NCBI GenBank assembly: GCA_000004695.1
Contig: CM000155.2
Location: 2,848,001-2,912,000, forward strand
Length of the DNA: 64,000 bases
Direction: 5' to 3'
Source: Dictyostelium discoideum
Lineage: Eukaryota
Numbering within the stretch: the first letter of the stretch is position 1; every line of letters begins with the position of its first letter. This document shows positions 20,959 to 23,309 of the stretch, in pieces. The position numbers and the translations under genes are program-made. Below the pieces are notes generated by a model that worked only from the letters and a program-made list of their open reading frames with translations, was not told where the DNA came from and did not search any database.

Positions 20959-21195
20959 TCAAAGAGCGGACAAAGTTAAATTACCACTAATACCTGGTAT
21001 GTCTGATAAGATTGATAATAATAAAAATGGTGGCGGATTATCTCTATTTGAAATAAAACTCCCTATTGAGTACCCTTTTAATTCAATCCTATTTGGAATA
21101 AAGCCAATATCAGTGATTGGCACAGTGAATCGATTTTTAGTTTCTGTAAAGTGTCCATAAATATTGATTGTTTTTTCTTGATTTGGTTTGCACAT
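20959..21195 (-). CDS. Hypothetical ORF D of co-directional 4-ORF cluster (78 aa)
   Basis: ORF with normal complexity and Dicty codon usage, 95 nt downstream of ORF C. Separated from it by a spacer containing a perfect hairpin GTCGG-tcttgc-CCGAC (21238-21253). Confidence 0.3.
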   Translation of the reverse strand: MCKPNQEKTINIYGHFTETKNRFTVPITDIGFIPNRIELKGYSIGSFISNRDNPPPFLLLSILSDIPGISGNLTLSAL

Positions 21196-21290
21196 TCTAT
21201 AATATTATACATAATATTATTTACTAAATTAATTATTGTCGGTCTTGCCCGACTTGATGCCAATGATACGAGGTCGTAGGAACGTAGTTC

Positions 21291-22286
21291 TTACAATTCA
21301 ATCAATGGTCTACCACTCATTCCATTATTAATAACACGATGTTCTTTTGTAACAACAAAACAATAATGAGAATTGTTATTTGCTGCAGTGAGATATACAG
21401 TTGCAGCATATGTTGGACTACGGTTATGAATTGGAATTCCTTTATATGTATTATCATTTGGAACATCTGATTGAGTACCATTGCAAAAATCTTGAATCCA
21501 GCACCAGTTATAGTTATTAATGTCACCAGACATGATTGAACTACCTTCTAATAATTTTTTATTTGTATCATAATCCATATATGATGGTGGAATTAATGGA
21601 TATGGGGTTAATGGTTGATTATCTAGACTAGTTTGGAAATTACTTACTAGAGTTGAAGCAATATCATTTTGAACTGGTGGTAAATTTGCAGTTGCTTGAT
21701 TTGTTGTAAATATTGAATAATAGATACGATCCAATGTTAATACTCTTCCACTTGGAACTGTAAAACTAATACTTTGAATATTTGAATTTTGAGAAGCTGA
21801 AAATGTTTGAACATTGCTGTATAAAATTGGAAGCCCTTCATTTAATTTATTACGTAATTGATCAATAATAATTTGATTTGTCTCAGTTGCAAGATATAAT
21901 GTAATATTTTGGATATTCATTGGAGCTTGAGTTAAATTTGGTGCAGCTGCTAATACTGGTGGACTTGCTGCAGTACCATAAAAACCAAGTGATGTTAATG
22001 GGTTTAATGTAAATTGCAATTGCATAATATCACCAAATATTAAATCTTTATCCAATGATAATATGGTATCATAGATATCACTAAGATAAATTTTTACTGA
22101 GAATTTAGTTGGTACATTTGCTGTTACAGCACCAATTAAATACTGACATTCACTATATGGTTTATCTGCTTGATTTGCTGTATTAATTTGATATCTGTAA
22201 TTTGTTGCATTATTTGATGCAAAACCTGGTGTAAATATAATAGTATCACCACCTGCATTTGGAAATACTTTTGCATAACGATTCAT
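21291..22286 (-). CDS. Hypothetical ORF C (331 aa) of co-directional cluster; no low-complexity tracts; candidate structural (capsid-like?) protein
   Basis: Long intact ORF MNRYAKVFPNAGGDTIIFTPGF...NYNWCWIQDFCNGT...GRPLIEL with host-like codon usage and no homopolymer runs. It is richer in beta-strand-type residues (T, S, N, Y, V). It starts 20 nt after the stop of ORF B. Confidence 0.5.
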   Translation of the reverse strand: MNRYAKVFPNAGGDTIIFTPGFASNNATNYRYQINTANQADKPYSECQYLIGAVTANVPTKFSVKIYLSDIYDTILSLDKDLIFGDIMQLQFTLNPLTSLGFYGTAASPPVLAAAPNLTQAPMNIQNITLYLATETNQIIIDQLRNKLNEGLPILYSNVQTFSASQNSNIQSISFTVPSGRVLTLDRIYYSIFTTNQATANLPPVQNDIASTLVSNFQTSLDNQPLTPYPLIPPSYMDYDTNKKLLEGSSIMSGDINNYNWCWIQDFCNGTQSDVPNDNTYKGIPIHNRSPTYAATVYLTAANNNSHYCFVVTKEHRVINNGMSGRPLIEL

Positions 22287-22306
22287 AGTTTGTTGTTGTT
22301 TACGAT

Positions 22307-22651
22307 TTATTTCATTGTAGCTTTTGAATGTTGATGTGCTGATGTTAAATCGAGTAAATATTCACCACTACGCGATTGAAATGAAATTTGACTAAAGAAT
22401 GAAATGTAATCAGCGAATAAATATGGTACATTATTTGCACCACCAGCTGGAATGGTTAAATCAAATTGTAACCAACTTCTTGATAAATTATATACTGAAC
22501 TTGCACCAAGATTGAATTTTATAATTTGACCTTGTGAAGAAAGAGTTGTTGAAGTACCACTTTCTGGTTGAACGACATATGGTACATAACTTGGACCTGT
22601 TTCGTTAAAAGCGGTGTAATCTACTTGACTTGAATGAATTTCTCTTGACAT
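22307..22651 (-). CDS. Hypothetical ORF B (114 aa) of co-directional cluster
   Basis: MSREIHSSQVDYTAFNETGPSYVPYVVQPESGTSTTLSSQGQIIKFNLGASSVYNLSRSWLQFDLTIPAGGANNVPYLFADYISFFSQISFQSRSGEYLLDLTSAHQHSKATMK. Stop TAA is followed by a 20-nt spacer and then the ATG of ORF C. Upstream spacer 22690-22800 is GC-rich (ggggtggtggccaggtttaaggtcggcacg...gcggcatgacgctttcg). Confidence 0.45.
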   Translation of the reverse strand: MSREIHSSQVDYTAFNETGPSYVPYVVQPESGTSTTLSSQGQIIKFNLGASSVYNLSRSWLQFDLTIPAGGANNVPYLFADYISFFSQISFQSRSGEYLLDLTSAHQHSKATMK

Positions 22652-22754
22652 TTTGTATTATATATAATAGAGTATAAATAAATAATATATAAATAATATA
22701 TAAATAAACCAAGCTTGAGCAAGGGGTGGTGGCCAGGTTTAAGGTCGGCACGTT

Positions 22755-23159
22755 TTATATCGTGGTAAGCGGCATGACGCTTTCGTTGTCTTTATGCGCA
22801 ATGTACTTCATAAAATCTTTATGCATATCATAATAAACTTCTTTTTTGAAAAAACACAAAGTAATATTTAAATCAATACCATTCAAATTAATAATTTCAC
22901 CATCACCATCAGTTAAACTAAATGTAAACCCATTTTGATTTGTTGATGTTAATCTTTTACTATATGCTTCAATTGCATTATTTGACCAATTAATATATGA
23001 ATAATCTAGGTTACCAGTTAAATAAATCTCTTGTAATATATCATCATTTCCATTACTACATATATTTGAGTGAATATAAACTACATTATCAATGTTGTAG
23101 GGAATTTTTTTTGAAATTTCGCTTTCTAAACGGCAGTGAATTTTTACACTAAAATACAC
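22755..23159 (-). CDS. Hypothetical ORF A (134 aa) of co-directional cluster
   Basis: ORF MYFSVKIHCRLESEISKKIPYNIDNVVYIHSNICSNGNDDILQEIYLTGNLDYSY... Its start overlaps an inverted repeat AGTGAATTTTTACAC ... GTGTAAAAATTCACT (23138-23184). Confidence 0.35.
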   Translation of the reverse strand: MYFSVKIHCRLESEISKKIPYNIDNVVYIHSNICSNGNDDILQEIYLTGNLDYSYINWSNNAIEAYSKRLTSTNQNGFTFSLTDGDGEIINLNGIDLNITLCFFKKEVYYDMHKDFMKYIAHKDNESVMPLTTI

Positions 23160-23309
23160 TGTTTATGCATGGTGTAAAAATTCACTAAAATTTTTTTTTT
23201 TTTATAATTAAATTAAAAAACAATTTATTTAATCAGAACAATAAAAAACCAATTTTATTCAGTTATTTGCTTGTTATTTATTTTTTTATAACAAAAAAAT
23301 TTAGTTTGC

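Follow-up and report, generated by a model that had tools for sequence, protein, structure and literature searches.

A 64,000-nucleotide stretch of the Dictyostelium discoideum nuclear genome (assembly GCA_000004695.1, contig CM000155.2, positions 2,848,001 to 2,912,000; in the following called the window) contains a cluster of four minus-strand open reading frames (ORFs), named A to D in the direction of reading, which is very probably a relic of about 2.2 kb of the capsid module of an endogenous DNA virus of the Polinton/Maverick type. In particular, ORF A would be the remainder of a penton gene, ORFs B and C together a frameshifted gene for the major capsid protein (MCP), and ORF D the first half of a small gene that follows the capsid gene in related elements. 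An initial annotation, made from the sequence alone, had proposed a viral or transposon structural module at this place, which agrees with the predicted capsid and penton folds and with the gene order of the relatives. Homology to ordinary cellular protein families and an arrangement as exons of a single host gene were both checked, and neither was found.

An ORF scan reproduced the co-directional arrangement, the coordinates and the spacers that had been claimed for the cluster, with 103 nt between A and B, 20 nt between B and C and 95 nt between C and D (Table 1). As claimed, homopolymeric tracts are absent from all four ORFs. The window is an AT-rich segment of a dictyostelid chromosome (GC content mostly 0.15–0.30) with four assembly gaps of 100 N each and host genes for BRCA2, a WD40 protein and several ABC transporters. 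With a GC content of 0.26–0.33 the cluster exceeds its AT-rich flanks (0.14–0.21) but equals host coding sequence in the window, e.g. 0.33 across the BRCA2 gene. Scans of ORFs A to D against Pfam and PHROGs gave no significant match.

ORFs B and C had been annotated as two separate ORFs. The junction between them and the homologues show that they belong to a single gene, split by the loss of one A at the frameshift site. The C frame is open for about 25 codons upstream of the ORF C ATG and overlaps the end of B. At the junction the B frame ends with SKATMK followed by a stop, and the C frame runs on as INRKQQQTMNRY (INRKQQQT...). The homologues from Heterostelium and EukProt cross the same point uninterrupted, SKMTMKINRKLSKT (...SKMTMK-INRKLSKT...). 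Because the C frame is open into B and the homologues read through, B and C form one gene, whose frameshift-repaired product comprises 453 aa. A second assembly of D. discoideum (GCA_054883475.1, locus L002) carries an identical frameshift.

The repaired product aligns end to end with an intact 450-aa MCP of Heterostelium at 42% identity. Taken separately, ORF B aligns to aa 5–129 of this protein and to aa 1–118 of the MCP on the metagenomic contig L004, and ORF C matches aa 112–449 of the Heterostelium MCP at 42% identity (tblastn, E 3e-69). The Heterostelium copy is the closest relative, since metagenomic members of the family reach at most 32% identity. Of 33 positions that are conserved in at least 80% of the family, the D. 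discoideum protein retains 27 and the intact Heterostelium copy 26. Besides the single frameshift, no stop codon interrupts the 1.36-kb capsid reading frame.

When 5.8 billion proteins were searched with the fused B+C sequence, only three matches were obtained: the gene model of D. discoideum itself, PPL_12645 of Heterostelium album (43% identity) and a EukProt protein. An exhaustive search with an MCP profile revealed 1207 cluster representatives at E ≤ 1e-3, nearly all of about 450 aa and aligned end to end; these representatives are metagenomic and lie on contigs of up to ~19 kb. With the MCP alignment as query, a word-indexed search returned only 8 matches, none of them with an informative name. 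Pfam gave no match for 55 members of the MCP family, neither to capsid families of nucleocytoplasmic large DNA viruses (NCLDVs) nor to any other capsid family, and a profile search against PDB sequences was likewise without a match. Since no protein of the cluster could be assigned through Pfam, PHROGs or PDB sequences, we predicted structures.

For the MCP we modelled the core of the Heterostelium protein with AlphaFold, using an alignment of 100 sequences that included ORFs B and C. The model reached a predicted local distance difference test (pLDDT) score of 92.9 and a predicted template modelling (pTM) score of 0.92. A Foldseek search of the PDB with this model returned double jelly-roll (DJR) capsid proteins only, at E values of about 1e-12. 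The matches comprised the MCPs of SGIV (E 1e-12), Sputnik and mavirus as well as PBCV-1 Vp54, and further the MCPs of EhV and faustovirus, vaccinia D13 and PRD1 P3. Among the viral models of BFVD, the matches belonged to the same DJR class and spanned NCLDVs, virophages, adintoviruses and adomaviruses, such that the fold does not discriminate between these lineages. The B+C family is thus predicted to be a DJR MCP, in agreement with the impression of jelly-roll structural proteins voiced in the initial annotation.

ORF A belongs to a second capsid gene. A tblastn search of the window with the Heterostelium penton protein matched aa 167–270 of 275 at 58% identity (E 9e-33), and the homology covers the last ~105–110 residues of relatives of 273–276 aa, at roughly 22782–23105 of the window. 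ORF A would therewith represent the C-terminal ~40% of a penton protein of about 275 aa, the 5' 60% of the gene being lost. The N-terminal 165 aa were not found in any frame, neither in the window nor in L002. The family has 241 matches, among them DFA_00304 and DFA_02942 of Cavenderia fasciculata and a protein of Acytostelium subglobosum. We modelled a close metagenomic homologue from 75 sequences including ORF A (pLDDT 89.9). The top fold match was the mavirus penton (6g41, E 2.6e-9), followed by the penton of PBCV-1 and the adenovirus penton base, and the ORF A family is therefore best described as predicted penton proteins.

A palindrome lies where the penton homology breaks off, near 23105. 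It corresponds to the 15-bp inverted repeat that had been noted to bracket the start of ORF A, and it is clearly non-random: its fold has an energy of −22.2 kcal/mol (z = −6.25), which none of 200 shuffled sequences attained. The arms do not occur elsewhere in the window. The palindrome is likely the signature of a rearrangement breakpoint. In the simplest reading, the deletion by which the 5' part of the element was lost would have left it behind as a foldback or inverted-duplication scar.

ORF D shows 29% identity over 63 aa (BLASTP, E 3e-5) to a 141-aa ORF that lies directly downstream of the Heterostelium MCP gene, and 139-aa genes occupy the equivalent position after the MCP in L004 and L005. 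ORF D is accordingly read as the N-terminal half of a conserved protein of about 140 aa that follows the capsid gene in related elements. No downstream frame contains a continuation into the C-terminal half.

In Heterostelium album (locus L001) three co-directional, uninterrupted ORFs of 275, 450 and 141 aa are homologous to A, to B+C and to D, respectively. On their flanks lie genes for a P-loop ATPase with a weak match to Pox_A32, for a Peptidase_C48 protease (E 1e-6) and for a DUF5906 helicase, and the integrase is present as a split gene, with a weak rve match (E 0.0038) followed by a Chromo ORF (E 1.5e-11). We also examined two metagenomic contigs of ~19 kb. The first, L003, carries rve (E 4e-12), DNA_pol_B_2, a 276-aa gene and a 453-aa MCP-like gene; the second, L004, carries rve (E 4e-13), genes of 273, 458 and 139 aa, a Pox_A32-like ATPase and Peptidase_C48. 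The ATPase, protease, penton and MCP of these contigs all match the Heterostelium element. The order penton, MCP, ~140-aa protein in the relatives is that of A, B+C and D in the window, and the gene set of the relatives is the Polinton/Maverick core set. Spurious introns have turned several gene models of such loci into chimeras. In PPL_12645 and the EukProt model penton and MCP are fused, i.e. an ORF A-like segment with ~165 residues before it is joined to a B+C-like segment, and ACTFIT_008973 fuses ORF C and ORF D.

The relatives also bear on the question whether the four ORFs are spliced exons of one host gene. We rejected this explanation: the relatives encode separate uninterrupted genes on virus-sized contigs, and the gap between B and C cannot be an intron because 20 nt are too short for a Dictyostelium intron.

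Table 1. Features of the capsid-gene cluster and of the associated helicase pseudogene (positions refer to the window).
Feature	Position	Strand	Description
ORF A	22755-23159	minus	134 aa, GTG start; putative 5'-truncated penton gene (minor capsid, single jelly-roll)
ORF B	22307-22651	minus	114 aa; putative N-terminal 113 codons of the MCP gene, stop created by the frameshift
ORF C	21291-22286	minus	331 aa; with the open upstream frame spans 21291-22309, putative C-terminal ~340 MCP codons
ORF D	20959-21195	minus	78 aa; putative 3'-truncated N-terminal half of a conserved ~140-aa protein
Frameshift site	22310-22312	minus	AAA, probably AAAA earlier; homologues read ...SK(M/A)TMK-INRK...
MCP-ORF D spacer	21196-21290	minus	GC-rich right after the MCP stop, then AT-rich before the next ATG
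Penton-MCP spacer	22652-22754	minus	GC-rich for ~46 nt after the penton stop, then AT-rich promoter-like ACTCTATTATATATAATACAAA-ATG
Palindrome	23135-23186 (arms 23135-23149, 23172-23186)		15-nt perfect arms, 16-bp stem, 22-nt loop
D5-type (DUF5906) superfamily-3 helicase pseudogene	57553-59024	minus	same element family, 34 kb from the cluster in the window

A further gene of the element family is preserved in the window as a helicase pseudogene. The helicase of Heterostelium (DUF5906 Pfam match, E 4e-19) matched this region by tblastn over aa 64–555 in two frames (E 1e-35). Two lesions are seen within ~1.5 kb, a frameshift near 58350–58377 and an in-frame stop. The separation of pseudogene and cluster in the window is due to a block of ~30 kb between two assembly gaps (26168–26267 and 56130–56229). 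The block is bracketed by direct copies of a 739-bp sequence (25425–26162 and 56230–56968, 95.3% identical), which abut the gaps. In the second assembly, L002, window positions 62957→56968 are joined directly to 26162→19858, such that only one 739-bp copy and no ~30-kb block are present. There, no more than 3.7 kb separate ORF A from the helicase pseudogene, which is upstream of it on the same strand. Over the capsid stretch the two assemblies do not show a single mismatch in 3.6 kb. The ~30-kb block is due either to an error of scaffolding or to a genuine difference in structure, i.e. a deletion or duplication between the direct repeats. The suggestion that the cluster travels with a D5-like helicase is borne out by the linkage in Heterostelium album and by the short distance in the second D. 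discoideum assembly.

Part of these data could also be explained by the integration of a giant virus (Nucleocytoviricota) or of a virophage (Lavidaviridae-type) instead of a Polinton/Maverick. The fold scores are alike for the MCPs of NCLDVs, virophages, adintoviruses and adomaviruses, and the best penton match comes from the virophage mavirus. D5-type helicases are typical of NCLDVs, some virophages and Polinton-like viruses (PLVs), and the related contigs show a modest enrichment of TCT-type motifs ahead of their genes (see below). However, the relatives lie on ~19-kb contigs with a Polinton core (rve, DNA_pol_B_2, A32-like ATPase, C48, penton and MCP). An origin in a giant virus is further opposed by the Pfam result (0 of 55 family members matching NCLDV or other capsid families) and by the surroundings of the locus, in which no further NCLDV-like genes occur and the large ORFs encode BRCA2, WD40 and ABC transporter proteins. 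For virophages the distinction is partly one of classification, since those of the mavirus type share their gene set with Polintons. Taken together we regard an origin outside the Polintons/Mavericks as very unlikely.

Most genes expected of a Polinton/Maverick are missing in D. discoideum. When the genes of the related elements were compared with the window and L002 by tblastn, only the penton C-terminus, the MCP and the D5-type helicase were detected. Within these two sequences we found no A32-type packaging ATPase (queried with the ATPases of Heterostelium, L003 and L004), no Adenain/Ulp1-like cysteine maturation protease and no rve integrase. A polymerase was also not found in either, the D5-type helicase pseudogene being present instead. 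The neighbouring ORFs of 88, 143, 147 and 89 aa have no counterparts in intact elements. The long terminal inverted repeats (TIRs) and 6-bp target-site duplication of a Polinton/Maverick were likewise not found, as a search around the remnant in the gap-free assembly gave only low-complexity A/T matches. Since the capsid fragment is truncated internally at either end, the original termini are lost. The sole good inverted repeat near the remnant bounds an unrelated unit of ~1.5 kb, which contains the 739-bp sequence and the 89-aa ORF. Its arms of 76 nt are 93% complementary and 1328 nt apart (L002 5668–5743 and 7072–7147, in the window roughly 57215–57290 and ~24954–25030). The unit is located between helicase pseudogene and penton fragment and looks like a small TIR-bounded DNA transposon.

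Several observations weigh against the assignment to Polintons/Mavericks or against a mere relic. Replication or integration genes that define a Polinton are absent from the locus, as are TIRs, such that the Polinton assignment comes from the relatives. In Heterostelium, a 691-aa ORF (L001 9710–11785, minus strand) is found at a position where the polymerase might be expected. Its product matched nothing in Pfam, and a comparison with the DNA_pol_B_2 protein of L003 detected no similarity, such that a protein-primed polymerase (pPolB) is not supported here. A scan of IMG/VR with penton patterns yielded no confirmed relatives. The sequences used for structure prediction were those of homologues, namely the MCP core of Heterostelium and a metagenomic penton, and not the D. 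discoideum ones. Finally, the capsid ORF is otherwise well preserved, as it is free of internal stops and keeps 27 of the 33 conserved positions, which leaves a small probability that B and/or C retain a residual or co-opted function. The label "remnant of a Polinton-type element", assigned through the relatives, is nevertheless supported, and the two capsid genes support the Polinton class.

Intact relatives carry, head-to-tail and without introns, genes for a penton protein (~275 aa), a DJR MCP (~450 aa) and a ~140-aa protein, accompanied by genes for packaging (ATPase), maturation (protease), integration (rve integrase) and replication. In keeping with the folds and with what is established for the virus class, MCP trimers would form the faces of an icosahedral shell and penton pentamers its vertices. 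In D. discoideum the element would then have decayed by deletions and point mutations, by which the 5' 60% of the penton gene, one base of the MCP gene and the 3' half of the small gene were lost and the helicase gene acquired a frameshift and a stop. A viral origin would account for the intron-free, polycistron-like layout and for the lack of Asn/Gln tracts. The compact, polycistron-like module of the initial annotation is thus retained as a viral layout, but in the state of a decayed remnant in which A and D are truncated and B/C is frameshifted. Most likely the locus is non-functional at present.

The good preservation of the capsid frame raises the possibility of host co-option, in which B and/or C, or a recoded full-length product, would be expressed and serve a host function, e.g. 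virus interference. For such a function speak the frame itself, which apart from one frameshift is free of stops and retains as many conserved residues as the intact Heterostelium copy, and the promoter-like AT-rich sequence ahead of the MCP start codon, which is intact. On the other hand, recoding rules make a full-length product doubtful: the frameshift site AUG AAA UAA AUC is no canonical slippery heptamer, and a run of 3–4 A would be too short for efficient transcriptional slippage. A double jelly-roll that is split after its first ~113 residues is unlikely to fold, and the neighbouring element genes are all truncated or disrupted. By our estimate, an ORF of the size of the MCP would have to diverge by a few per cent before a stop codon is to be expected in it. 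The damage to the helicase is similarly low (one stop and one frameshift in ~1.5 kb), and the preservation of both genes fits a uniform, slow neutral decay better than selective retention. We therefore consider co-option very unlikely and retain the decayed Polinton-type remnant as explanation.

The spacers of the cluster follow a common pattern, in which ~45–55 nt of GC-rich sequence after the upstream stop are succeeded by ~40–55 nt of AT-rich sequence before the next ATG. Within the GC-rich parts, GTCGGtcttgcCCGAC forms a perfect hairpin at 21238–21253, the sole one of its class in the window (perfect 5-bp stem with at least 4 GC pairs and a loop of 3–8 nt). GTAGGAACGTAGTTCTTAC forms an imperfect hairpin at 21276–21294 that overlaps the ORF C stop codon, one base off the position implied by the initial annotation. 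A GC-rich stretch was located at 22723–22780. Upon comparison with dinucleotide shuffles the GC-rich spacers did not fold any better as RNA (z = −1.1 for MCP-ORF D and −1.0 for penton-MCP). They matched neither Rfam nor tRNA, and in Heterostelium they are not conserved. As interpretations, structured RNAs, terminators, tRNAs and known RNA families are rejected or unsupported. The GC-rich hairpin spacers that had been pointed out are present and rare, but a functional structure is not supported, and we regard them as divergent viral 3'-flanking sequence and not as demonstrated structures.

Concerning the AT-rich parts, we noted an ATCT/TCTA-type motif together with a TATA-rich stretch 6–35 nt upstream of gene starts in the related contigs. 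The enrichment is modest: 8 of 17 genes in L003 compared to a background of 14%, and 9 of 25 genes in L004 compared to 19%. In D. discoideum the MCP gene has ACTCTATTATATATAATACAAA directly before its ATG (22652–22680), with a TCT-type motif at a distance similar to that in L003 and L004. The TCT-type motif is similar to the motif of late promoters in giant viruses and mavirus. One may speculate that the dictyostelid Polinton lineage, and with it the D. discoideum relic, was virophage-like, with transcription from TCTA-type late promoters provided by a hypothetical giant virus of social amoebae, and that the capsid frame was kept or expressed for an antiviral or domesticated function; we give this scenario little credence.

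Comparison with known systems supports the classification of the remnant as Polinton-type. With Polintons/Mavericks (polintoviruses, Polintoviricetes) the cluster shares the adjacent, co-directional genes for DJR MCP and penton, and its relatives share the A32 ATPase, the Ulp1/adenain-like C48 protease, the rve integrase (with a chromodomain in Heterostelium), the protein-primed PolB of L003 and the size of ~19 kb. A further likeness is the integration in dictyostelid nuclear genomes (PMC3671162, PMC4642659). The D. discoideum locus differs in being only a ~2.2-kb fragment plus a helicase pseudogene, without other core genes or TIRs, and the dictyostelid copies differ in their DUF5906/D5-type helicase, which is outside the canonical Polinton core. 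Virophages of the mavirus type agree in core gene set and folds; the ORF A family finds its best structural match in the mavirus penton, and the MCPs of mavirus and Sputnik stand high among the fold matches of the MCP. However, there is no sequence-level similarity to solved virophage capsid proteins, the MCP is shorter (~450 aa here compared to 503–515 residues in mavirus chains and 508 in Sputnik), and the promoter motifs give weak evidence. To our knowledge, no giant-virus association of dictyostelids has been described.

PLVs usually lack a maturation protease and an rve integrase. The relatives of the D. discoideum cluster have both, and their gene content is therefore Polinton-like rather than PLV-like. 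PLVs (TsV-N1 and PgVV groups) are otherwise small dsDNA viruses with DJR MCP, penton and A32 ATPase that often possess S3H/D5-type helicases in place of pPolB and in protists frequently occur in endogenous form (PMC4642659, PMC10120064). Among dictyostelids, Polintons are on record from Polysphondylium (Heterostelium) pallidum, Dictyostelium (Cavenderia) fasciculatum and Acytostelium subglobosum (PMC3671162, PMC4642659, PMC4409740), and the main text of a large survey of endogenous viruses in protists does not name a dictyostelid (PMC10120064). For D. discoideum, the searchable literature did not yield an account of a remnant of this kind.

The repeat catalogue of D. discoideum, which is dominated by retroelements and small DNA transposons, would hence also hold a capsid-encoding fossil of the Polinton type. 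The fossil is related to the elements of Heterostelium, Cavenderia and Acytostelium and extends the range of hosts known for the lineage within Dictyostelia. Several gene models for "hypothetical proteins" are moreover explained as chimeras of viral genes. The locus may serve as a marker for timing the last infection of Dictyostelium by such viruses. It documents that a model organism was once in contact with such a virus, and it provides no new mechanism.

Some further features were seen next to the cluster and in its relatives. A 74-aa ORF on the plus strand (19973–20197), ~800 bp from ORF D, has a weak match to DDE_Tnp_4 (Harbinger/PIF-type transposase, E 9e-4), in line with the Harbinger-like remnant that had been annotated nearby. 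The 88-aa ORF mentioned above (20585–20851, plus strand) is convergent with ORF D and has no Pfam match and no counterpart in related elements. On the strand opposite to it, a sub-threshold match to SNORD64 (20620–20696, 24.6 bits compared to a gathering score of 40) is probably due to chance. A SET-domain gene (PF00856) adjoins the penton gene on L004 (8560–9126) and also on L005 (441–1007), and it possibly encodes a viral histone methyltransferase.

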